A stretch of DNA of 37,431 nt from Candidatus Thorarchaeota archaeon (GCA_038893995.1 JAWAQK010000006.1:24367-61797), one strand, 5' to 3'; shown: positions 7,705 to 29,125, numbered from the stretch's first letter. Program-made: numbers and translations. The notes: generated by a model not told the origin, from the letters alone.

Positions 7705-7724
7705 GCCCAGATTTGACAACAGTC

Positions 7725-8717
7725 ATGCTTGCTGATAAGATGTCACATGTTGCACTGGAGCAGGCGGTGACACGCAGATACCTGTCCATACGTACTGACC
7801 GGGCTAGGGCGATACTCACGTTGCAACACCAGATCTCAAAGGCGGTCCGACGTTTTCTTGACGGTGAGGGATTCACTGAGTTCTTGGCGCCGATCATTGG
7901 TCCTGCGACTGACCCCGGAATCAGGGGCGCCAGAGCCCTTCGGGTCGACTTCTATGGCAAGGAGTATGTCGTGATGACGAGCATGATACTCTACAAGCAG
8001 ATGGCAGTGTCGAGCATCCCGAAGATCTACTCCTTCTCGCCGAATGTACGTCTGGAGCCAGCAGAGGGCGCGACGACTGGAAGACATCTGGCAGAGTTCT
8101 ACCAGGTCGACCTCGAGGTTGCAGAGGCGTCCCTATCAGCAGTCATGGACCTAGGTGACAGACTCCTGTCAAGTGTCATGGCAGAAGTGACTGATTCATG
8201 CAGAGAGCAGCTGGAGATGTTGGGTCGCACACTTAGACCCTCTCCCTCGCACCTGCCCAGGATCAAGTACTCAGAGGCCCTTGAATTCCTGAGTAGGGAA
8301 GGCATGGATGTTGAGTGGGGTCAGGAGATCCCGTGGGAATGCGAGAGTGTTCTCTCACAAAGGTTTGCCACGCCGTTCTGGGTGACAGACTACCCCGTCG
8401 GCTCACGGGGCTTTTACTACTTGGTTGACCCCGATGACCCCGAGATGTTGAGGTCTATGGACCTGATACTGCCGGAGGGATTCGGGGAGGTCGCTAGCGG
8501 TGGCGAGCGGGAACATGAGGCTGAGAGGGTGGTGGCCCGGATGAGAGAGAGTGGCGAGGACACGTCGAGGTACGCATGGTACATTGACATGCTGCGTCAG
8601 GGAGTACCCCCGTCTGCTGGCTTCGGCATAGGCCTCGAGCGCCTCACCAGATATGTGTGCGGAGCAAGGGAGATCTGGGAGTGTTCACCGTTTCCCAAGG
8701 TCCCAGGCATCGCCTGA
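7725..8717 (+). CDS. asnA: Archaeal asparagine synthetase A (AsnRS-like, no anticodon domain)
   Basis: Class II aaRS core only: SMILYKQM, SPNVRLE, TGRHLAEFYQVDLE, EVASGGERE, PSAGFGIGLERL. Start could be 7713, 7725 or 7740. Confidence 0.92.
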   Translation: MLADKMSHVALEQAVTRRYLSIRTDRARAILTLQHQISKAVRRFLDGEGFTEFLAPIIGPATDPGIRGARALRVDFYGKEYVVMTSMILYKQMAVSSIPKIYSFSPNVRLEPAEGATTGRHLAEFYQVDLEVAEASLSAVMDLGDRLLSSVMAEVTDSCREQLEMLGRTLRPSPSHLPRIKYSEALEFLSREGMDVEWGQEIPWECESVLSQRFATPFWVTDYPVGSRGFYYLVDPDDPEMLRSMDLILPEGFGEVASGGEREHEAERVVARMRESGEDTSRYAWYIDMLRQGVPPSAGFGIGLERLTRYVCGAREIWECSPFPKVPGIA

Positions 8718-10404: not shown

Positions 10405-11874
10405 ATGCTAGGACTCCTACAACTCGTCATGCACATGGCCATCTACTCCCTCTCAGGGACAGTCCTGTACGCACTCAGGAACAGGCTGGGGCTTATTCCT
10501 TTCTACATCTATATCGGGATACTGCAGGTCCTGACTACTCTCATGAGCGGCTTCTACGTCCTTGACGTGGGATGGGGTGTGCAGATCGGCGGGGGAAGTA
10601 TCGCCTATGCGGGGGTCGTGTGGTGCGTCCTGCTACTCTACTTGGTCGAGAGAGACTTGGATACCGCAAAGGCGGTGATCCTTGGCATCCTTGCTGTTCA
10701 GTTCGTGTTCCTATTGCTCTATCCATACTACGCACTGCTGTTGACGTCCGAGTACGCGAACAACCCGCTGGCGATTCCATCGGCTCTATTCGATGTCAGT
10801 TTCGGGATATTCTGGGTCGGAAATCTCCTCGCTCTCCTTGAGATGGTCCTGATGATATTCATGGTGGAGAGAGCCATCAGGGCCATGCCGCATGTACCGT
10901 CTGCTGTCCTTGCAGCCCTCGTATACTGCACGATCATGGTAATCGACAGCATACTGTTTCCACTCTTCGCGTTTCCGGTCACTCAGTCGGTATCGATCAT
11001 CTTGGGTCTCAGTTCACTGCTCGGAAAGCTGATGCTGGGAGTCGGCTACGGGGCGGTTCTTACTGTGGCAGCAGGGTTCCTGGTCGAACAACATGTCATT
11101 CGCGATGGGAAAGTTGCAATTAGCTTTGCAGATATGATATCTCTTCCTAAGACAGAAGTCATACGTGCCTGGCGCAGAGCCGAGGAGAACCAAGAGATGG
11201 TCTGGCTTCTGCTTGATCTAATGGGCCACGATCTGAGGAACTACAACGAGATGACGCTCAAGATGTTGGAACTCCTGCAGTTTCTTCACCCTGATCTTGG
11301 CGCCGATGCCCTCGGTCGTCTGGACGAGATACGCCGTGTCGTGCAGCAGGCAGTGGACCTTGTAGACAACGTGCACACGCTCGGGATGCTCAACGATAGA
11401 AAAGTGGTACAGGAGAAGGTGGAACTCTACCAATTCTTCAGTAGTGCAAGAGACCGCCTGATGGCGTCTTTCAGCGATGTTTCAGTCGTCATCAACGGGG
11501 ATGAAGCACTGAAGGACATGACTGTCGTGGGCCATCCCCTGTTCGAGAGAGTCTTTTACAACATTCTCTCGAACATGGTGAAACATCGCAGACCCAGTGG
11601 CGACACTGTCCACATAGATCTGAAGGTAGAGAGTGAGGGAAGGTCTGTCCACGTGGTCCTGATGGATGACGGGCCCGGCATTCCAGATCGTGAGAAGATT
11701 ACTGTATTCGATAGTCTTAGAAAGAGACCACGTCATAGGGGTTTTGGGTTGTTCCTGGTCAAGGCCATAATGGACCTGCTTGGAGGCGAGATATGGATTG
11801 AGAACAGACCCGATGCGCGAGGGGACTACACCCTGGGCACGGCCTTTCACATGAGGTTCCTAGTCCCGCGTTGA
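10405..11874 (+). CDS. Membrane sensor histidine kinase; N-terminal multi-TM domain resembles VUT/YhhQ (Vut_1) transporters
   Basis: About 6-7 hydrophobic helices in the first ~230 aa; H-box LMGHDLRN, N-box VFYNILSNMVKH, G1 DDGPGIP, G2 GFGLFLV. Confidence 0.9.
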   Translation: MLGLLQLVMHMAIYSLSGTVLYALRNRLGLIPFYIYIGILQVLTTLMSGFYVLDVGWGVQIGGGSIAYAGVVWCVLLLYLVERDLDTAKAVILGILAVQFVFLLLYPYYALLLTSEYANNPLAIPSALFDVSFGIFWVGNLLALLEMVLMIFMVERAIRAMPHVPSAVLAALVYCTIMVIDSILFPLFAFPVTQSVSIILGLSSLLGKLMLGVGYGAVLTVAAGFLVEQHVIRDGKVAISFADMISLPKTEVIRAWRRAEENQEMVWLLLDLMGHDLRNYNEMTLKMLELLQFLHPDLGADALGRLDEIRRVVQQAVDLVDNVHTLGMLNDRKVVQEKVELYQFFSSARDRLMASFSDVSVVINGDEALKDMTVVGHPLFERVFYNILSNMVKHRRPSGDTVHIDLKVESEGRSVHVVLMDDGPGIPDREKITVFDSLRKRPRHRGFGLFLVKAIMDLLGGEIWIENRPDARGDYTLGTAFHMRFLVPR

Positions 11875-12145
11875 GTGACAAGCCTGTGGCCAAGACAAAA
11901 CACTTTTGTCCATCACCTCATCACTGCACTGATCCTGTGGCCCTTGTCTATCCCCGTCCTGCGACCCGTATCAGATACCATTGAGGAATCCTTATGTTGC
12001 TACTACCATTGACACATGCCTCACAGATGGCATACTAGGCGTCCGACACGTGTCTTGAGACCACGTTCTGTACCGGGGATTGCCAAGTACTGAACGCGTC
12101 AGTGGACCGATGCCCATTGTCTATGCTCATGGAGATGATCCAAGA

Positions 12146-13138
12146 GTGTCTGAAAGTGCAGTCGAGATAGTCGATCTCTCAAAGACATTCGTCTCAGTCC
12201 GAAGGAGGGCCATTATCATTCCGGTGGAGCATAGATTGGTCCACGCCTTGAGGAACGTGAGCCTAGACATACCGAGGGGCAAGACATACGGGATCCTCGG
12301 TCCAAACGGGGCAGGCAAGACAACTCTGATCAAGATACTGGCCACGCTCGTGCTCCCTACGTCAGGCACGGCCCGCGTGAATGGCTATGATATCCTCAGG
12401 GATCCCACATCCGTTCGCGCTTCAATAGGAGTCTGTCAGGGAAACGAGAGGAGTATCTACTGGAAACTGACACCGAGAGAGAATCTCATCTTCTTCGCCA
12501 AGCTGTACCGAATGAATGCTAAAGAGTCAAGAGAGAGGGCAGACGAGCTGCTTGGTCGAATGGGTCTGCTAGACAAGGCAGACGAGAAGGTAGAGAACCT
12601 GTCCCATGGAATGCGTATGAAGATAGTTTTTGCCAGGTCCCTGCTGCACGACCCGCCCATTCTGCTACTGGATGAACCAACTCAGGGTCTGGACCCTACA
12701 TTTGCCACCGACCTCAGAAACTACATCAGAGACGAGCTGCGGGACCGTACGATCCTACTGACCACACACTACATGCACGAGGCAGATCTGCTGTGCGACA
12801 AGATTGCACTGATAAATGATGGGGTGATACAGTCTCTGGGAACCCCCAAAGAACTCAAGGAGGCGGTACGGGACTATGACAGTCTTCACATCACTGTCAC
12901 CGGAACGCCGGACATAGAGGCAATACGGAAACTCGATCTCGTGATGTCAGCATTCACTAGAACAAGAGGCAGTCACACCGAGGTTGTTGTCACTTCCCAC
13001 GATGGGTATGAGCTCGCCCATAGGATATTGACACTGCTCCACGAGACGCCGGGTATTCGAGTGGAGCACTTTGAGGTCAAAGAACCGACGCTCGACGATG
13101 TGTTCCTACAACTGACAGGCAGGAGGATTGAAGACTGA
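12146..13138 (+). CDS. ABC transporter ATP-binding protein (DrrA/NodI-like exporter ATPase)
   Basis: Walker A GPNGAGKTT, signature LSHGM, Walker B LLLDEPT, TTHYMHEA, C-terminal EPTLDDVFL. Start inferred at GTG 12146; the ORF is open from 12080. Confidence 0.93.
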   Translation: MSESAVEIVDLSKTFVSVRRRAIIIPVEHRLVHALRNVSLDIPRGKTYGILGPNGAGKTTLIKILATLVLPTSGTARVNGYDILRDPTSVRASIGVCQGNERSIYWKLTPRENLIFFAKLYRMNAKESRERADELLGRMGLLDKADEKVENLSHGMRMKIVFARSLLHDPPILLLDEPTQGLDPTFATDLRNYIRDELRDRTILLTTHYMHEADLLCDKIALINDGVIQSLGTPKELKEAVRDYDSLHITVTGTPDIEAIRKLDLVMSAFTRTRGSHTEVVVTSHDGYELAHRILTLLHETPGIRVEHFEVKEPTLDDVFLQLTGRRIED

Positions 13139-13140
13139 CC

Positions 13141-14037
13141 ATGTCATCTGGCGTAGAGGCAGCGGTCTCACACCAGACCGGACGGGGACACTCCAGAGAC
13201 TTCAGATCCAGATATCTAGACTGGCATGCTGTGGGAGTCTTCGCTGCCAAGAATCTAAGGATTGCCGTCAGGTATCCTGCCAACTGGATAATCTGGGGTT
13301 TTCTGCCCGTATTGTGGTTTGCCCCGTACCTCCTGATGATGATTGCAATATCAGGTCCGGGGACGAGCCAGAGTTTTGAGCAGATCTCTGGCTTCAGTGA
13401 TTTCATTGCCTTTTCGATCATCGGTGTGTTTGTCTACCAGTACGTCGACAAGAGTGTGTGGAGCATAGGGAACAACTTCCGTTGGGAGCAGTTCAGTGGG
13501 ACACTCGAGCCACTCTTTGTGACTCCGGTCCCGCGGACCAGTATCCTGCTTGGTGCTGCGCTGTCGGACACAGTCCAGGTCACATTCTCCGCACTTGTGC
13601 TCCTAGGATTCTCCTCGTTTCTGTTTGGTGTGAGCTATGCCACCAGCACAGTCCTACCGATCCTAGTCATGCTCATCATGATGCTCCTCGGTCTGTACGG
13701 CTTCAGCTTTGTGCTTGCAGGTCTCATCATCGTCTTCAAAGACCCCAATGTACTGACGCAACTTGTTTCGAATGTCACCTACGTGCTCTCGCCGATCACC
13801 TACCCCCTACAGGCCCTGCCGGGTCCGGTCCGGTTCGCCGCTGTGTTTGTGCCATCGACAATAGCCATGATCACCATAAGGGATCTAGCCATGACGGGCT
13901 GGTTTGAACCAGTGAGCTATCTCAACGCTCTCTCAGTGCTGACGCTCGTAGTGAGTCTGTTCTGGTTGATCGGTCTACTGACCTTCAGGTACGCAGACAG
14001 ATGGGTCCGAGAGAGAGGAACTATGGGAGGTTTCTAG
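13141..14037 (+). CDS. ABC-2 type permease
   Basis: Six TM helices; EQFSGTLEPLFVTP and YPLQALP motifs; operonic with the ATPase. Confidence 0.92.
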   Translation: MSSGVEAAVSHQTGRGHSRDFRSRYLDWHAVGVFAAKNLRIAVRYPANWIIWGFLPVLWFAPYLLMMIAISGPGTSQSFEQISGFSDFIAFSIIGVFVYQYVDKSVWSIGNNFRWEQFSGTLEPLFVTPVPRTSILLGAALSDTVQVTFSALVLLGFSSFLFGVSYATSTVLPILVMLIMMLLGLYGFSFVLAGLIIVFKDPNVLTQLVSNVTYVLSPITYPLQALPGPVRFAAVFVPSTIAMITIRDLAMTGWFEPVSYLNALSVLTLVVSLFWLIGLLTFRYADRWVRERGTMGGF

Positions 14038-14038
14038 A

Positions 14039-14899
14039 ATGACTCTCAGGTACGACATACTGAACAGGGGAGGGGCGCGCTCGGAGATTAGGGCTGCACT
14101 GGCGATAGCCATCAACATATGGAGAGTCGAGCTCAGTTATCCCCTCAGTGTGTTGTGGTTCATCCTGATGCCGTTTCTCTGGTTCATACCCATGCTCATT
14201 ACTGGGCATGCCGTTGCAGGAGGACCGGAATCCTCCATACTGTACAGCTATACTGGTACGCGCGACTGGATAACTTATGTGGCCGTTGGAACATCCATCA
14301 CAGGGCTGACCATAAGTCTGATGTGGGGGACAGGGTTCTCATTGAGACGTGAGCAGAACTCGGGAACACTCGAGACACTGATGTCAACCCCTGTTGGCAG
14401 GAGTACTGTGGTGTGGGGGTCGATGCTGCATAACCTACAGCACGGTGGGCTGGGAGTCCTACTACAGCTCCTGGCAGCAGTGGTCTTCTTTGGCGTGACC
14501 ATCGACGCATGGGGTATCTTTCCTGCACTCGGAATCATTGCTCTTGCTGTGTTGGGGCTGCAGGGTATTGCATTTGCGGTAGCTTGTATAGTGCTGTTGG
14601 CGAAGCAGGGCTGGATGCTGGTAGACTTCATCTCAGGCACACTGATACTTGTTGCACCAATGGCGTATCCCCTGGCTGTCCTACCGCCCATTGTACAATA
14701 CATCTCCGTCATGTCTCCCCTGACGTGGAGCGTCGAGGGATTCCGCGGTTTCCTCATGAACGGGCTTGCATATCAGGGAGTAGTGCAAGCTGTAGCCAGT
14801 CTGCTAGTTGTCGATGCCGTCTTCTTTGCATTCGGTCTTGTGATGTTCAGGTACACGGAGCGGTACGTCAGAGAGAAGGGAGCACTCGAACACTTCTGA
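14039..14899 (+). CDS. ABC-2 type permease
   Basis: EQNSGTLETLMSTP, YPLAVLP and SPLTW motifs; paralogous to the preceding gene. Confidence 0.92.
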   Translation: MTLRYDILNRGGARSEIRAALAIAINIWRVELSYPLSVLWFILMPFLWFIPMLITGHAVAGGPESSILYSYTGTRDWITYVAVGTSITGLTISLMWGTGFSLRREQNSGTLETLMSTPVGRSTVVWGSMLHNLQHGGLGVLLQLLAAVVFFGVTIDAWGIFPALGIIALAVLGLQGIAFAVACIVLLAKQGWMLVDFISGTLILVAPMAYPLAVLPPIVQYISVMSPLTWSVEGFRGFLMNGLAYQGVVQAVASLLVVDAVFFAFGLVMFRYTERYVREKGALEHF

Positions 14900-15049: not shown

Positions 15050-16117
15050 CCCGCTATGAGTTAGACTCGTGGTTTGCAGGATACCTGAGACTGTGCATTG
15101 TGCTCTCACTCGCGTCCGCGTTGGGTTACAGGCTACGGGTCATCGATGCCACTGCGTTCGGAATTGTACTCGTCTCGACATGGGGGCTTTCCCCTGCTTC
15201 TAATGACACTCTCCGTCCTTGGTAGACGTCCGGGGAAATCCATCACCTAATCAATGTACTACTTGACGTTCTCTGAGACTCTTGGTGCTGGTGCAAGAGC
15301 ATAGACTCCGACGCATAGGGAGGTTGTTGAACGCAAGGTCCTGGTGGCAGGCTACGTATCGGTGTGCATGTTCACACTGTCCTATCCCTCCTGGCCTACC
15401 TAATGGTCCTGGGGGCCAATCCGACACCGGTGAGCATGCTCTCGCTACTATTCAGTATCATCGTATCTGGTGTCATTGGCTTTCCGCCGTTGTCCAGAAT
15501 GTCGGGATCACAGCCAAGTGATGTCAATGTGCCGGACCGGGTCCCCATCGTCGTCACACTCCTCTTTCTCACACTCGCTCCGTACATCTTGGCTGGTCTC
15601 GCGGTTCTCGACGTGGTGCTGGTCTCCGGATGAACCGTTCATGTGGCAGGAAGACAGCTCGCGACACCTGAATCGTCGACATGGAGAGCATTGACACGTC
15701 TGGTTCTACTGCACACTCTGTCGGATGCAGTCTGTCGTTGCTGCCGCTGGGGCTGGAAGTAGTGGCACTGGGCAGAGCCTGGTGGCTTTGCTGAGATACT
15801 CTGGTTTCTCCAGAGATGTTCCGCTGCCAGTCGCCTTTGGCATCTTCCACACGTCGTGGATGCTCACTACGGCCGGACTAGCGATGCGAGAACATATGTC
15901 GAGGGAGTCGCCGACGTCGTCCGGCCGCCTCATGTTGATGGGTTCGGTCTTCGCAAATGTGGAGGTCGCAAACAATGTTCAACGACTCACGGTTGATGTG
16001 GGTACCGTCGAGGGGGCTGGGCTGCTCATGCCTCTGGAATACCCTCTCTACCGGCTCATCAGGGCAGTCGTTCAGATCATAGCATTCGTTGCTGTTTTCG
16101 TCAAGACCGTGCGATGA
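15050..16117 (+). pseudogene. Probable decayed multi-pass membrane protein gene(s)
   Basis: Successive short hydrophobic plus-strand fragments in different frames (tail of 14509-15225, 15364-15633, 15725-16117) in an otherwise gene-dense window. No intact long ORF. Confidence 0.35.
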
Positions 16118-19125: not shown

Positions 19126-21366
19126 CTATGCCTTCTTGCGCTGCGACCTGGGGATTACTATCCGAAACTCTGCACCCTGGTCGTGGTGCCCCGGTACTCT
19201 ATCGCCTATCTCTATACGGCCTCCGTATTTCTCTGCTATCTGCGACGACTGATGAAGTCCGAATCCTCCAAACCTACGGGCCTTATCGAGGAGGACCGCC
19301 TTCGTTGAGTCAGGGACCCCTGGTCCGTCGTCGGCAACGGTCACTACGTAGCTCTGTGCCTCTTCAGACAGAGTGACCCAGACTCGCTTGACAGGCTTTG
19401 GATTGTGTTCGATGGCGTTGATGAGAATATTGGTAAGTAGGAGCTCGAGATACTCATCTGCCTCCACAATTGCCTCTGTAACGTCGTAGTGAGTCTCGAA
19501 CTGAACGTTCTCTGAACGGCTGCTCAGGGCCATCACACAACTGTCCAGGACCTCACGTAACGACCTCTCGACAAGGGGGACGTTCATAAGATGCTCCGTG
19601 GCTCGCACCTCGTCGATCAACCGCGAGCACTTCTTCACTGCGCCTGAGATTATGTCGAAGAACGATGATCTTGTCGTTTCATCATAGGACTCGCGAAGTA
19701 GTGCCGATGCACTGGCTATGACCTGTAGCTGATTCCTTATGTCATGGGTCATGATATCCAGATAGATGTAGGCCCTATCGCTGGCCGACTTCATCTCTCT
19801 CTCGACCCTTCGTCGGTCAGTGACATCGATGACGGCTATCTGCAGTGCAGGGGCACCCGCGTAGTCGACCACTGATGAGTAACTCTCGACCCATCTTACT
19901 TCTCCCGACGTTCTGATGAGCCTGTACTCTTGAGTTGTGGGTAGTGGCCTTCCAGCCAGACCCTTCAGGAGATTCTCTCTGAGCGTTTCTCTGTCCTCAG
20001 AGTGCACCATCTCCCAGACCTCGTCGATATGCATCTTTACTAGTTCGTCCACCTGACGCATGACTATCTTGGCGAAGGCCGAATTGGCGTAGAGGATTCC
20101 GTGCTCTCCGAGGATCATGATTCCCTGTGGACTATTGTCCGCAAGCTTCCTGTAGCGTGACTCAGACTTTATCATCTCGTCCTCTCGCATCTTCCGCTGG
20201 GTGATGTCCTGTGCTGTACCGAGGACACCGATCACGTTTCCATCGGAGTCCACGAGCGGGACTCGACTGATCTCCCACCAACACACCCTGCCATCGGCAA
20301 AACTGACTCTCTCGACCACGTGGAACTCCGGCGTGTTCTGTGTCATCACCCTCTCGTCTGCAGCCACAAAGGCCTCTGCCTGTGCCTCCGTCCATCCAAG
20401 GTCACGGTCGGTCTTTCCCGCTATACTCTCGGGACGCCCTGCGCCGGATGTCACAGCGAAGTTCGCATTGCATCCCATATAGACATGGGATCTGTCCTTC
20501 CAGAACACGAGCGCCGGGATGGTGTTCATGACCAGTCCGAGAAGTGTCAGTGACTCCTTCAGTCGATCCTGCATGCGTCGCATCTCACCGATATCATCGA
20601 ATGTGCACAGCACTTCGTGGACGTTCCCCTCATTGTCTAGCCGGGGATACATCTTGTACCTCAGATGGACGCGCCTGTTCCAGCAAGACACGAAATGATG
20701 CTCTCCGGTCACCACTGACTTTGTCTGGACACATCGCTGCAGCTCGTCTCTCAGGCGGGGATCCTGCAGCAGAGTGAGGCCTGCCTTCGTAAGGTCGTCG
20801 TATTGCTCCGCTGGTGCAGCTACGAGCTGCAGTGCGGCCCGGTTTGCGTCGGTCACCACTCCGTCAGGACGCACGATCACAATTCCGATCGGACTCTCAT
20901 TGAACAGAGTGCGGTACTTCTCCTCGCTGTGAACGAGAGCCTGACTTGTCCGGACAATTCCTGTGATGTCTGTGACCACCCTCAGAAAACCTACAGTCTC
21001 TCCCTTGTTCCCTATCAGTGGGGACTCAGACACAATGGTGGACACGGCCTCCCCGGTCCAGTGGATCCATTCGAGCTCGTACTGTGGGACTCTCTTTGTC
21101 TTGTCATCGACACTCTGTCCCGTCAATACTTCCTTGTACTTCGGACTGAGAAGTCGCAAGAGATCACTCCCAACAAGCTCGTCCGCGCGGAAACCGACCA
21201 TCTCGCAGAAACGCTGGTTCACAAAGAGTATGTCATTCTTGTTGTCTGTGACTACGACTCCGTCATTCATGAAGTCAATCAGTGCCTTGTAGAATTCTGG
21301 CGGAGGTTGCCTCCCCAAGTCCGCAGACGGCCACTTTGTCGGGCCATTTCCTTGCTCCACGGTCAA
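19126..21366 (-). CDS. Cytoplasmic multi-PAS (about 4 PAS/PAC) histidine kinase
   Basis: Repeated PAS/PAC units ending DIT, DIG, DIT and DVT; H-box IMTHDIRN, N-box NILINAIEH, DDGPG, GGFGL. Confidence 0.93.
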   Translation of the reverse strand: MTVEQGNGPTKWPSADLGRQPPPEFYKALIDFMNDGVVVTDNKNDILFVNQRFCEMVGFRADELVGSDLLRLLSPKYKEVLTGQSVDDKTKRVPQYELEWIHWTGEAVSTIVSESPLIGNKGETVGFLRVVTDITGIVRTSQALVHSEEKYRTLFNESPIGIVIVRPDGVVTDANRAALQLVAAPAEQYDDLTKAGLTLLQDPRLRDELQRCVQTKSVVTGEHHFVSCWNRRVHLRYKMYPRLDNEGNVHEVLCTFDDIGEMRRMQDRLKESLTLLGLVMNTIPALVFWKDRSHVYMGCNANFAVTSGAGRPESIAGKTDRDLGWTEAQAEAFVAADERVMTQNTPEFHVVERVSFADGRVCWWEISRVPLVDSDGNVIGVLGTAQDITQRKMREDEMIKSESRYRKLADNSPQGIMILGEHGILYANSAFAKIVMRQVDELVKMHIDEVWEMVHSEDRETLRENLLKGLAGRPLPTTQEYRLIRTSGEVRWVESYSSVVDYAGAPALQIAVIDVTDRRRVEREMKSASDRAYIYLDIMTHDIRNQLQVIASASALLRESYDETTRSSFFDIISGAVKKCSRLIDEVRATEHLMNVPLVERSLREVLDSCVMALSSRSENVQFETHYDVTEAIVEADEYLELLLTNILINAIEHNPKPVKRVWVTLSEEAQSYVVTVADDGPGVPDSTKAVLLDKARRFGGFGLHQSSQIAEKYGGRIEIGDRVPGHHDQGAEFRIVIPRSQRKKA

Positions 21367-21485: not shown

Positions 21486-23660
21486 TCATCTTTGTGTGTT
21501 GCACCTGGGCAGTCTGACGACGAAGCACGCGCCTTGGCCTGGCTGATCGTGCACACGATCCTCCACAGAGAGTCCTCCCCCGTATCTCTCTGCTATGCGC
21601 TTGACGAGAGTGAGCCCCATCCCATGCCTTGCTGCAAGTTCTGGAGGATTCACCCCCATTATCTGTTCCCTGACTGCATCAGGTATACCGGGGCCATCAT
21701 CCGCCACTTTCACGATGAGCATATCGTCGTCCGCGGGATCCTCCTCGACGTCGATGAAGATGCTGACGTCCGGTCGTCTAGAGTGTTTGACAGAGTTGTG
21801 TACCAGGTTGTAGAACAGGTCAAACAAGAACTCATCTCCCATGACCGAGATCTGTTCATCATGTCGGCGTACCAGATGGATGGTCTTGCTAGGAAAGGCC
21901 TGCATGACCGCATCAATCGCCCTGTTGACCACCTCCTCGAGATCGTAGGTCTTGTCGGCACGAGCGCTATCCTCGACGGATGAGAGACGTCGTACGTTCG
22001 ATGTCAGTTCGATACCACGTCTGACCTGATCCATTACGGACTCGAGTATCCACTGCTGTTCGGATGTGGGTCTGAACGAATCCTGCAGCAGCTCGAGACC
22101 GAGCAGTAACGCCTGATGTATATTCTGAAGGTCGTGGCTGAGGAGGTCGTTCAGGAGTACAGCTCTAGCCCTTGCATGTTCCAGCTCTCTGCGCGTCCGA
22201 TTGCGCTCTGTGACGTCTCGGATAGTGGTCAGGTATACCGGCGTGCCTCCAATCTCTACACGGTCTATGCTGATGATAGCGTCGATCCTGGCACCAGTTC
22301 TTGTCTTCAGCGATAGCGAGTAGTCTCGCAGTTTACCGGTCCGATCCGTTCTCTCGATGATCCTTGACCAGTTTGATATGCCCATCTCCTGTAGTCTGAA
22401 ACCCTCTCTTGCCTCTGGGTCACAGCCGAGTAGGTTGAGGAGATGCAGATTCATCTCCAACGCCTCTCCATTGCTGTTGAAGAGTCCGATAGCGATAGGG
22501 GCGGACTCGAAGAGCGTGTGGTACTTCTCTCTCTCCTCTCTGAGCTGTTCCATCATGGCCCTCTGCATGGAGATATCGTGTAGTACGACTACCACTTTTG
22601 ATGGCAGTCCTGATTCTCTCCGTTGCACCACAGATGACATGATAGCATAGATTGTTGTTCCGTCCCTTCTGAGGAAGGGCACATCACTAGTCACGCGCGT
22701 CTCTGACTCAAGCAGGACCTGTTGCGATAGCGGGGAATCCCCCGGTTCCATTCTGCTATGGTCAAAGAACTTCTCCAGCCTTCTCCCAACAATTTCTTCA
22801 ATGGGATAGCCGAGTATCTTTGAGGCCGACGGGTTGCAGGAAACCACTGACCCCTCCATGTCTAGGACCAACACTCCGTCGACCATGGTGTCGAGCATTG
22901 CCCTGAGTTCGCCCTGAGATCGTCTGAGTTCGTTCTCTGCCAACCACTGAGGAGTTGCATCTCTGACGTACTCAAGTACGCCGACTATTTCGTCTGTGCT
23001 GGGATCTCGCATGGGAGCACTGTAGAGGTCCAGCCATCCGACGGTCGTGTTCTCAGAGTCGGTGAGTGGCACACCTGCGTAGGCAGGCCTCCCCTCCCTG
23101 AGGGCCTTGAGGCTTGGACAGAATGTACAGGGCTTGTCGCGATTCTGGTAGACCACATGGCATTTCTTCCCCACGACCGGCATGTGATGCTTATACCATT
23201 CCTCCATTTTCCAGTTGACTGCAACAATGTTCAGGTTAGTATCGAGGAAACTCACACCGTCCTGGATACTCGAAAGGACCATAGACAGTAGCGGTTCCGA
23301 CTCGTCTATTGTCAGCGTGCTTCTTGGTTCTCGACATAGGACGACAAGGGCATGCGGTTGATGGTCGTCGTGTGTCACCGGAAGGACGGCCAGTGTCATC
23401 AGCTGCCTCTTGCCGCTCAGAATGGCCTCAATATGACGGTATCTCGCGCTTCTCTCGATGACGGCGGCGGAACAGAGACCGAGGTACGCCGACATGAAGG
23501 GTAATACCTCCGGTGCGGTGTGTCCGTCAATGTCATCATCGCTGATGTAGCCATCTAGCCATTCTGTAAGAGCCCGGTTATGTCTCTCGATCAGCATCTC
23601 CGCGTCTACGACGAACGCAGGACTCGTCATGGAATCAACAAGCTCTGCTAGTCTATCCAA
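21486..23660 (-). CDS. Cytoplasmic multi-PAS (about 4 PAS) histidine kinase
   Basis: PAS units ending DAT, DIS and DVT; Cys motif GKKCH...PCTFCP; H-box LSHDLQN, N-box NLVHNSVKH, DDGPG, GMGL. Confidence 0.93.
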   Translation of the reverse strand: MDRLAELVDSMTSPAFVVDAEMLIERHNRALTEWLDGYISDDDIDGHTAPEVLPFMSAYLGLCSAAVIERSARYRHIEAILSGKRQLMTLAVLPVTHDDHQPHALVVLCREPRSTLTIDESEPLLSMVLSSIQDGVSFLDTNLNIVAVNWKMEEWYKHHMPVVGKKCHVVYQNRDKPCTFCPSLKALREGRPAYAGVPLTDSENTTVGWLDLYSAPMRDPSTDEIVGVLEYVRDATPQWLAENELRRSQGELRAMLDTMVDGVLVLDMEGSVVSCNPSASKILGYPIEEIVGRRLEKFFDHSRMEPGDSPLSQQVLLESETRVTSDVPFLRRDGTTIYAIMSSVVQRRESGLPSKVVVVLHDISMQRAMMEQLREEREKYHTLFESAPIAIGLFNSNGEALEMNLHLLNLLGCDPEAREGFRLQEMGISNWSRIIERTDRTGKLRDYSLSLKTRTGARIDAIISIDRVEIGGTPVYLTTIRDVTERNRTRRELEHARARAVLLNDLLSHDLQNIHQALLLGLELLQDSFRPTSEQQWILESVMDQVRRGIELTSNVRRLSSVEDSARADKTYDLEEVVNRAIDAVMQAFPSKTIHLVRRHDEQISVMGDEFLFDLFYNLVHNSVKHSRRPDVSIFIDVEEDPADDDMLIVKVADDGPGIPDAVREQIMGVNPPELAARHGMGLTLVKRIAERYGGGLSVEDRVHDQPGQGACFVVRLPRCNTQR

Positions 23661-25868: not shown

Positions 25869-26453
25869 ATGAGAGACCAGAACGAGGGAAGCAGGATCTT
25901 CAAGGCAGTCCTCATAGGAGACGGAGCTGTTGGCAAGACCAGCATTCGCCGCAACTACCTTGGTGAGGACTTCATGGACGGTCACATAGCCACAATTGGA
26001 GTTGACCTTGCGACAAAACGGGTCCTGTACAACAAGGAAGTCGTGAAGTTCATAATCTGGGACCTGGCGGGTCAGCCGACGTTTGAGAAGGTGAGGGGGC
26101 ACTACTATCAGGGCGCCAACGGGATCCTGCTCGTCTATTCTGTCGTGGACCGCAGATCGTTCGACAACGCGTCGAAGTGGCTCGTCGAGGCATACCGGAA
26201 CATGAAGCGCCTTGTTCCAACTGTCATCATTGGAAACAAGATCGATCTCAGGAATGGCGTTCCTGAGTCCCAGCTTGTCACAACAGAAGAGGGGCAACGA
26301 TTCACGGAGTATTTCATCAACAAGCTCGGGATTCCTGCTGTGTTCATCGAGGTGTCAGCCAAGACCGGTGAGAAGATACAGGATGCCTTCAGTGAGCTTC
26401 TTCGGATGATGTCTGAGGCAGAGGACCGGGAGAATGCCTTCAGGGTCGGTTGA
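25869..26453 (+). CDS. Rab-like small GTPase
   Basis: G1 GDGAVGKTS, switch [26 protein letters not shown]. Confidence 0.95.
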
Positions 26454-26512
26454 AGTTTCCGCATTCGGAACCCTTATCACGCCCAGTAACTATTGTTAAT
26501 CACGCTGGGACT

Positions 26513-29125
26513 ATGAACATGAGTGAGCAGGCCAGAGAGTACCGTCCATCGAAGATGTCAATCAAGATCGAGGGCATGCATTGTGCCTCCTGTGTCGCGA
26601 CAATAGAGAGAGCGCTGTTATCTCAGGATGGTGTGATCAGTGCCAGCGTCAGTCTTCTTGACGAGAGGGCCGTCGTTGAGTACAGACCTGGATCCGTTGA
26701 TCGGACTCGTCTTGAGAAGGCGGTGGAATCGGTAGGATACCGACCAAGGCGACCGTCTGTGACTCTGAAGTTCCAGCGGGACGTCACACCTGATCACCTT
26801 GAACATGTCCGCAAGGCGTTGGCCGCGGTGGGTGGTGTTATCTCGGTGACAGTTTCGCCGCGCTCGACAAGCATGGTAGTCGAGTACGACCATGATCTAG
26901 TGACTCCACGGGCACTGGGCAAGACAGTAAGAGAGATCGGGTATGATGCGGAGATAGTTGAGACCAGAAACACGGACCGGGAGGCACGTACCCGTGAGGG
27001 GGAGATCCGGTACTTCAGGGCACGTCTGATCCTGTCAGCCCTGCTGACACTGCCTGTCACCCTGATGATGGTTGGCGTGTACTCGATGGGGAGTATGTTT
27101 CTCGACAATATTGTCATGCTAGTACTCGTGACGCCGATTCAGTTTGTGGGCGGATATCCCTTTTACGTCTCGAGTGTGAGAGCACTGAGACACTGGAGGG
27201 CCAACATGGACACACTTATCATGCTCGGTACAAGTGCTGCATACTTCTATTCGGTCCACGTGACCCTCTTTGCCCACGAGTACCCCTCCTTCTTCGATAC
27301 GTCTGCAATGCTGGTGACATTCATACTCCTTGGCCGCTATCTTGAGGCGAGGGCAAAGGGTCGCACGTCGGAGGCGATCCGATCGTTGTTAGACATGCAG
27401 GCGCATACAGCTGTCGTACTACGAGATGGCGTAGAGATGGTGGTCCCGGTGGAAGACATCGAGGTCGATGATCTCTTGCTGGTCCGACCTGGGGACAGGG
27501 TACCTGTGGATGGTGTGGTAGTCGCGGGTGAGTCATCGGTTGACGAGTCCATGATGACTGGTGAGTCCATCCCCGTCCGAAAGAGCGTTGGCGACACCGT
27601 GATTGGCTCCACGGTCAACAAGAATGGTGTGCTTCAGGTGAAGGCGATCCGTGTTGGTGAGGATACTATGCTCTCCCAGATCGTTAGAGTCGTGGAGCAG
27701 GCGCAGACCAGCAAGCCCGCCATTCAGCGGCGTGCAGATGCCCTTGCAGAGGTCTTCGTCCCGCTCGTCATGGTGATCGCCCTGGTGACTCTTGTCGCAT
27801 GGTACCTCGTGAGCCCGACCGAGTGGTTCCGTGCACTGAGTTTCTCCATTGCGGTGCTAGTTGCAGCTTGCCCGTGTGCACTTGGCCTTGCCACTCCGAC
27901 CGCTATTATGGTGGGTCTGGGCAAGGGGGCTCAGAACGGGATACTCATCAGGAACGGAGAGGCGCTCGAGACTATCCCACGGATCGATACGGTGGTCTTT
28001 GACAAGACTGGTACGTTGACAGTTGGAAAGCCGCGGGTGGCGGACATAGTGTATTTTGGAACTCGCTCGGCCGAGGAGATCCTGCGACTGATCTCGGCAG
28101 TCGAACGATTCAGTGAGCATCCACTGGGAGAGGCCATAGTTCACTACGCCGACGAAACGGGCGTTGAGGTCGCCTTTCCGGACGACTTTGTCGCAGACCC
28201 CGGCAGGGGTGTTCGGGGTAGGGTCGACGGCCATCAGGTCGTCGTTGGTAACGAGCCATTCGTAGAGGACCACTCGGTGAAGACAGAGGAGGCCAGGTCT
28301 GTCATGAGGATGTTTGAGGAGAGTGGCAGAACCGTCGTCCTTGCCTCGGTCGACGGAGAACTCTCTGCAGTGGTCGCCATATCTGACATGATCAACCCTG
28401 GCGCACAGGATGCAGTCCGCCGGTTGACAGAGATGGGCATTGACGTGTGGATGCTCACGGGCGACAAGGCTCGCACAGCTCAGTCAGTTGCTGAGATGCT
28501 CGGTATCAAGAATGTGATATCTGAGGTGCTCCCCACTGAGAAGGCATCGAAGGTGAGGGAACTCCAGGAAGGTGGTCGGATCGTCGCCATGGTCGGGGAC
28601 GGTGTCAATGACGCACCTGCGCTTGCCCAGGCCAACGTCGGAATTGCAATGGGGTCTGGTACAGATGTTTCCGTCGAGACTGGCGACATCGTACTGATCA
28701 GGAACAGACTGACTGATGTGGTGTCCGGTATCGACCTCGGACGCAGGACAATGACGAAGATAAGGCAGGGATTCTTCTGGGCCATGATATACAATCTAGC
28801 GCTCGTACCCCTTGCTGCCGGGCTGTTCTATCCTCTGACTGGAATTGCCCTGAGGCCCGAGTATGCTGGTCTTGCAATGGCCCTGTCGAGCGTGAGCGTG
28901 GTCTTGAACGCCCTGTCTCTGAATAGGGTCAAGATTGGAGCAGCATCGGAAGAGGGGACAGACTCGCAGACACGTGGGACCACTGCCATCGACCCGGTCT
29001 GCAAGATGACTGTCGACATAGCATCGTCGTCGCTCTACACAGATCATGCAGGGACACGCTACTACTTCTGCAATCCCATGTGCAAGAAGATGTTCGACGA
29101 GGACCCTGCTTCGTATGTCCCCTGA
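26513..29125 (+). CDS. copA: Cu(I)-translocating P1B-type ATPase with N-terminal HMA domains and C-terminal YHS domain
   Basis: GMHCASC, TGES, CPC, DKTGT, SEHP, GDGVND, YN and MALSS; YHS domain DPVCKMTV...YYFCNPMC. Start 26513 or 26519, after TATA-like CCTTAT at about 26472. Confidence 0.95.

Follow-up and report, generated by a model that had tools for sequence, protein, structure and literature searches.

The gene at positions 10405 to 11874 of the window, by which we mean the whole 37,431-nucleotide stretch of a Candidatus Thorarchaeota genome analysed here (GCA_038893995.1, JAWAQK010000006.1:24367-61797), encodes, with a probability of about 85%, an orphan class-I sensor histidine kinase whose input is a VUPS (vitamin uptake-like sensor) membrane domain. 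The sensor domain is homologous to the Vut_1/YhhQ transporters, as four independent tests agree (profile comparison, bridging sequences, predicted fold and solved structures). The first-pass annotation of this DNA, working from the bare sequence, had proposed a transporter fold repurposed as the input of a histidine kinase, and this proposal is supported by the profiles, by the fold (TM 0.82) and by a map of the residues kept and lost. The Asgard kinase lacks PAS and is a divergent member, of Asgard-wide occurrence, of a family that is already catalogued, and the relationship between transporter and sensor is already stated by the Pfam name of that family; the idea was thus correct but not new.

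The kinase gene and the VUPS family

The open reading frame runs from ATG to TGA on the plus strand and its translation has 489 amino acids, in which the four motifs quoted by the first-pass annotation occur in the order given there, at residues 62-93 (GGSIAY...VILG), 128-153 (LFDVSF...MIFM), 180-190 (IDSILFPLFAF) and 205-211 (LLGKLML). The start codon is sound, since 17 Asgard orthologues of about 488 amino acids align with the protein end to end from Met1, with identities of 38-51% across the whole protein and 42-64% within the sensor domain. These close orthologues carry Thor-, Loki- and Hodarchaeal labels, remoter ones are labelled Heimdallarchaeota LC_3, Odinarchaeota and Kariarchaeaceae, and the distribution of the orthologues of about 490 amino acids across Asgard lineages is patchy. 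An Asgard origin of the DNA is supported by these labels and by the presence of a Ras-family GTPase gene in the window. The parts of the gene are as follows.

10405-11874, plus strand: complete gene of the VUPS-type sensor histidine kinase (P0001), from the list of open reading frames, the translation and the orthologue alignment
10459-11067, plus strand: VUPS membrane domain, residues 19-221, from PF20973, the AF2 model and hhalign
11086-11151, plus strand: linker between helix 7 and DHp, residues 228-249, ending in Pro248-Lys249; pLDDT below 50, P248 and K249 invariant in 18 orthologues
11149-11394, plus strand: DHp hairpin, residues 249-330, with the predicted phospho-acceptor His275 (codon 11227-11229), from the model and the KdpD alignment
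11413-11862, plus strand: CA (HATPase_c) domain, residues 337-486, with N, G1, F and G2 boxes, from PF02518 and the orthologue invariants

A Pfam scan of the protein returned only two matches, VUPS at residues 19-221 (PF20973, E 5e-21) and HATPase_c at residues 380-485 (PF02518, E 1e-16), while NCBIfam recognised kinase cores only. Pfam finds neither PAS nor HAMP between the membrane domain and the DHp and CA regions that follow it, in agreement with the direct fusion to the kinase core that had been described; the 'HAMP domain-containing' label that NCBI attaches to orthologues is likewise unsupported by Pfam. The VUPS match scored 75.6 bits for the whole protein and 78.3 bits for residues 1-240 against a gathering cut-off of 27 bits, and covered positions 5-204 of the 206 in the profile. 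It was repeated in a profile search of the organism's own genome, and the same assignment is precomputed in the protein collection for this kinase together with its orthologues (18 of 18). The residues that define the family, namely F129 and D181 (invariant) and Y34, G64, G139, F185 and K208 (at least 90%), are all present, as the codons confirm, and VUPS domains additionally have conserved positions of their own (Y34, Y51, G64, Y68, D84, R/K89, N120-P121, F129, S132, G139, E155, P186 and Y215).

The use of the domain across proteins is modular. An exhaustive search of 1.84 billion representatives yielded 243 VUPS clusters at E<=1e-3, and in all 150 matches listed, which reach lengths of 1745 amino acids, the domain lay at the N-terminus or close to it. 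Among 74 non-orthologous members, every one carried VUPS N-terminal to its output, and the partners included HATPase_c (32 proteins), PAS (about 35), HisKA (25), GGDEF (18), EAL (13), REC (8) and GAF (4), as well as a sigma-54 activator, a Ser/Thr kinase (Pkinase) and an HD_5 domain in one protein each. The survey for other outputs that the first-pass annotation had suggested has thus found GGDEF, EAL, PAS-kinase, sigma-54 and Ser/Thr-kinase fusions, and such promiscuous pairing is a hallmark of an input domain. In the literature that could be searched, no experimental study of VUPS in this sense was found, and a sensor form of Vut_1 is absent from two papers on the transporters (PMC5372724, PMC11130926) and from two overviews of two-component signalling in archaea and in Asgards (PMC5847659, PMC10343646). 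A single known ligand of VUPS would allow hundreds of signalling proteins to be annotated, among them kinases, c-di-GMP enzymes, sigma-54 activators and Ser/Thr kinases, and the compact Asgard orthologue that dispenses with PAS would offer a simple construct for work on the domain.

The output half of the protein looks catalytically competent, because key residues of the H, N, G1, F and G2 boxes do not vary among the orthologues (H-box H275, D276, R278 and N279; N-box N386 and N390; G1 D421, G423 and G425; F435; G2 G448). The model of the full-length monomer places the end of helix 7 near residue 226, two DHp helices at 249-294 and 300-330, and behind them a CA domain of alpha/beta type; the path of coupling is undefined in this model, since the linker from helix 7 to DHp has a pLDDT below 50. 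The best solved match to residues 267-472 is the KdpD kinase (6lgq, E 1.5e-15), and this alignment places H275-D-L-R-N on the KdpD H-box (SHDLRT of 6lgq); the segment from residue 236 onward is the part of the protein that aligns with KdpD. Pfam HisKA gave no match to the DHp region. The label 'KdpD' on a Heimdallarchaeote orthologue is an annotation of the core only.

Relationship of the sensor domain to Vut_1/YhhQ transporters

The YhhQ/QPTR proteins (PF02592, COG1738) are established importers of preQ0 and preQ1 (PMC5372724, PMC11130926). The Vut_1 HMM did not match the kinase even at E<=10, and the comparison was made between profiles, built from 60 diverse VUPS domains and 10 bona fide Vut_1 proteins from Asgard genomes. 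In local mode hhalign aligned VUPS 89-232 with Vut_1 91-235 at a probability of 91.3% (score 50.3, E 1e-6), and in global mode the probability was 92.7% over 233 columns. The signal is not a matter of membrane-protein composition, since one reversed and 15 column-shuffled controls scored far lower (score at most 15.4, probability at most 0.3%). Moreover, four of the 74 non-orthologous VUPS proteins also match Pfam Vut_1 at E<=1e-5, and a 511-amino-acid Asgard kinase (L014:1312-2844, plus strand, the same as L021; genome G030, contig C67) carries a sensor over both Pfam thresholds, with 93 bits for VUPS and 29.3 bits for Vut_1 (cut-off 27.2). Judged by these scores, this bridging kinase fits naturally between the transporters and the sensors.

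The AlphaFold (AF2) model of residues 1-235 (pLDDT 94.7, pTM 0.90) consists of seven helices, in a bundle spanning residues 2-234, and a beta-hairpin at 52-62. Over 225 residues it superimposes on two ESM-Atlas models of VUPS-GGDEF clusters (TM 0.85 and 0.84, rmsd 2.3-2.5) and on that of a Vut_1 cluster annotated as 'queuosine precursor transporter' (TM 0.82/0.82, rmsd 2.7). Foldseek found no match for the sensor model in the PDB at E<=0.001, and the VUPS profile returned only noise against PDB sequences, so that neither VUPS nor Vut_1 was found among the solved structures by sequence. An exhaustive structural aligner placed ECF S-components in all of the top 12 positions among solved structures, over residues ~24-232 and with Z scores of 8-10.5, values that chance alone can give for helical bundles; although each Z taken alone lies in a grey zone, the consistency of the list appears telling. 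Altogether, the Vut_1/YhhQ homology claimed by the first-pass annotation is borne out by hhalign (91-93%), by the TM of 0.82 to the Vut_1 model and by the residue map described below. With regard to the outcome named there as fatal to the claim, a match to a known sensor family in place of Vut_1, such a family was indeed matched (PF20973) but the similarity to Vut_1 is present too.

The seven modelled helices and the alternation of Lys and Arg between loops suggest an N-out/C-in topology with a cytoplasmic kinase. Basic residues are confined to loops 24-30 and 83-84 and to the cytoplasmic linker that follows helix 7, apart from R156 and R159, which lie where helix 5 ends on the inner side; loops 49-62, 114-126 and 194-197 are free of Lys and Arg. 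The positions most conserved in the VUPS family fall on helices 5-7, which are also the helices that form the substrate pocket of ECF S-components.

The residues kept and lost relative to Vut_1 were mapped by laying the global alignment of VUPS and Vut_1 over the column statistics of the same 60 and 10 sequences. Three of the residues kept form a mid-membrane trio.

10840-10842, plus strand: Glu146, intramembrane acidic residue of helix 5; E or D in 59 of 60 VUPS domains, in an E-rich Vut_1 column (E156, with E in 6 of 10)
10945-10947, plus strand: Asp181, helix 6; D in 60 of 60 VUPS domains, 18 of 18 orthologues and 10 of 10 Vut_1 proteins (D190 of the reference)
11026-11028, plus strand: Lys208, helix 7; K in 59 of 60 VUPS domains, 18 of 18 orthologues and 10 of 10 Vut_1 proteins (K219)

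Together with Phe185, which corresponds to Vut_1 F194 and is kept in 59 of the 60 VUPS domains, these are the only residues of the Vut_1-invariant core that remain. Vut_1 K63, T86, D87, N90, E91, S148, D159, R178, Q215, D226 and T227, that is, 11 of about 15 polar positions conserved in Vut_1, have given way to non-equivalent and mostly apolar residues, in a register that is uncertain by about one residue in the N-terminal third, where E82 might still correspond to Vut_1 E91. The remark that several polar transport residues had been replaced was therefore well founded. As to the register of the motifs proposed for Vut_1, the last two hold (D181=D190, F185=F194, A189=A198, F190=F199 and K208=K219), while the first two are approximate. 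Because only four core residues are kept and eleven polar positions are replaced, the VUPS domain of this protein is probably a receptor rather than a transporter of the Vut_1 type, and the loss of the polar positions makes it less likely that the domain still carries the same substrate in the manner of Vut_1. The map also provides concrete targets for mutagenesis, both in the residues kept (D181, K208 and E146) and in the eleven transporter positions lost.

Genomic context and the nature of the signal

Upstream of the kinase lie genes for a threonyl-tRNA synthetase (ThrRS), a class-II aaRS-like protein and a glutamate dehydrogenase, and downstream an ABC-2 exporter, an EamA transporter and a Ras-family GTPase, with gaps of 205 bp on each side of the kinase gene. 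The neighbouring features recorded in the window are the following.

7713-8717, plus strand: 334-amino-acid protein with only a class-II aaRS catalytic core (tRNA-synt_2) and no anticodon-binding domain, adjoining ThrRS
12080-14899, plus strand: DrrA-like ABC ATPase and two ABC-2 permeases, directly 3' of the kinase
15725-16117, plus strand: 130-amino-acid open reading frame with no Pfam match
19126-21366 and 21486-23660, minus strand: two tandem multi-PAS histidine kinases of 746 and 724 amino acids, some 7 kb downstream of the kinase with VUPS
26450-29125, plus strand: P-type ATPase with two HMA domains and, at the C-terminus, a YHS domain

The aaRS-like protein may be either an asparagine synthetase of the AsnA type or a paralogue of an aaRS, the P-type ATPase is probably a copper exporter, and the first 250 residues of the 724-amino-acid multi-PAS kinase have no Pfam match. 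In three orthologous loci (L017, L018 and L019) no neighbour is shared with the window or between one locus and another; since the neighbours are entirely different, the context gives no clue to the ligand, and the adjacency of the ABC-2 exporter is probably coincidental.

No response regulator adjoins the VUPS kinase. The organism's own genome has 11 open reading frames with HATPase_c and five with REC over the cut-off, the latter on contigs C17 and C75 and none of them near the VUPS kinase. In one orthologous locus (L017:9659-15604, minus strand) the VUPS kinase stands beside a REC-PAS kinase, a REC protein and a GAF-PAS kinase of 1072 amino acids, and these three proteins are possible phosphorelay partners in that lineage only.

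The first-pass annotation had connected the sensor with preQ0 and archaeosine, a connection that proved to be one of analogy only, with no riboswitch, no conserved neighbourhood and no relation to QueC. No Rfam family, preQ1 riboswitches included, was matched over the whole window, and no queuosine or archaeosine gene adjoins the VUPS kinase here or in the three orthologous loci. The organism's own genome, which is 91% complete, has one VUPS gene and no Vut_1 gene by profile search; it has an arcTGT-type gene (C1:79627-80610) and a PTPS/QueD-like gene (C12:16125-16511), and its sole 'QueC' match (C1:37104-37295) comprises only a PP-loop motif in a generic ATPase. Of 17 genomes sampled from the same family, 15 likewise gave no QueC, although many of the 15 or their relatives are 95-99% complete, and most of the QueC-negative genomes of the family are also without VUPS. 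Across 121 sampled Asgard genomes VUPS was found in 9, Vut_1 in 15 and QueC in 45, and among the VUPS carriers G019, G030, G086 and G089 are QueC-positive whereas G000 (the organism's own genome), G037, G093 and G094 are QueC-negative. The co-occurrence of VUPS with the preQ0 pathway thus follows no pattern, with carriers both with and without QueC and both with and without Vut_1, and nothing ties the sensor to 7-deazaguanines beyond ancestry.

Two other accounts of the domain have to be weighed against a receptor, together with a particular choice of its ligand. The one to which we give least credence is that the domain is a true transceptor, still carrying a 7-deazaguanine (preQ0, preQ1 or queuine-like) or a vitamin and reporting the flux to the kinase. 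The Vut_1 fold across the whole domain and the retention of the mid-membrane trio D181, K208 and E146 would fit such a protein, as would a genome with an arcTGT-type gene, no clear QueC or Vut_1 and no evident route of preQ0 supply, but the replacement of the eleven polar positions and the failure of the Vut_1 HMM speak against it, and so do the roughly even division of VUPS-bearing Asgard genomes between QueC-positive and QueC-negative, the lack of VUPS in most QueC-negative relatives, and the absence of an Rfam match from the window and of queuosine or archaeosine neighbours from all four loci. The transceptor of the first-pass annotation is accordingly left unsupported, with 11 of about 15 conserved polar positions lost. 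That the Asgard VUPS kinases sense a 7-deazaguanine (preQ0 or a relative) or another scavenged nucleobase or vitamin is, in our estimate, very improbable as well. If it were true, an archaeon that has arcTGT and lacks a recognisable QueC or Vut_1 importer would tie a two-component pathway to the availability of a precursor for tRNA modification, and a 7-deazaguanine, nucleobase or vitamin would be the first ligand for the whole VUPS family.

Somewhat less improbable, though still unlikely, is that the bundle reads no soluble ligand but a neighbouring membrane protein, such as the ABC-2 exporter, or a property of the membrane itself. The ABC ATPase and the two ABC-2 permeases follow on the same strand only 205 bp downstream, in one orthologous locus an ABC ATPase and a 12-TM permease lie about 1.5 kb beyond the kinase gene on its downstream side, and the protein shows hardly any loops outside the membrane. 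However, the three orthologous loci have different ABC types or none, and buried polar residues conserved across many outputs fit a pocket better than a scaffold; besides, the homologous folds (Vut_1 and the ECF S-components) bind small molecules.

Proposed mechanism and comparison with known systems

For the preferred reading, a receptor kinase, the N-out/C-in bundle would bind a small molecule, or otherwise sense a signal, in a cavity lined by helices 5-7, where the residues conserved across the family (F129, S132, G139, E146, D181, F185 and K208) would lie. Movement of helix 7 would then pass through the linker of about 20 residues to the DHp helix that carries His275, where the signal may alter autophosphorylation by the CA domain, and the phosphate would go on to a receiver protein whose gene lies in another part of the genome. 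The loss of transport, the direction of the signal and the identity of the partner regulator are presumed in this scheme in the same conditional sense as the binding of a ligand.

Compared with the VUPS family as Pfam describes it, the Asgard kinase shares the N-terminal placement of the domain ahead of a signalling output and scores about three times the gathering cut-off. Its orthogroup, however, reaches 65-100 bits on the Pfam model against some 170-190 bits for bacterial GGDEF members, the orthologues of about 490 amino acids have invariants of their own (E82, D84, Q99, N120-P121, N140 and Q194), and the membrane domain joins DHp without the PAS domain present in about half of the other members. 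With Vut_1/YhhQ/QPTR it has in common the seven-helix fold over 225 residues, a significant profile match and the residues D181, F185, K208 and E146; unlike the transporters, the VUPS protein is fused to a kinase, is not matched by the Vut_1 HMM and has exchanged the eleven polar positions.

The structural match to the ECF S-components (RibU, BtuM, BioY, PanT, FolT, ThiT and CbiM among others) extends over about 165 aligned residues of helices 2-7 at an identity of 6-15%, but the VUPS domain has an additional N-terminal helix, and no EcfT/EcfA partner is implied. The likeness to KdpD (6lgq) is limited to the DHp/CA core, as the protein lacks the N-terminal domain of KdpD and its gene has no Kdp genes in the vicinity. 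Parallels in architecture are the transporter-fused sensor kinases, namely CbrA, which joins an SLC5-type domain to a kinase, and the ammonium-transporter kinases, for both of which transport has been reported. These proteins likewise use a transporter-derived membrane domain as the input of a histidine kinase, but they draw on unrelated transporter superfamilies, and the transporter residues that they largely keep are mostly lost in the Asgard VUPS kinase.
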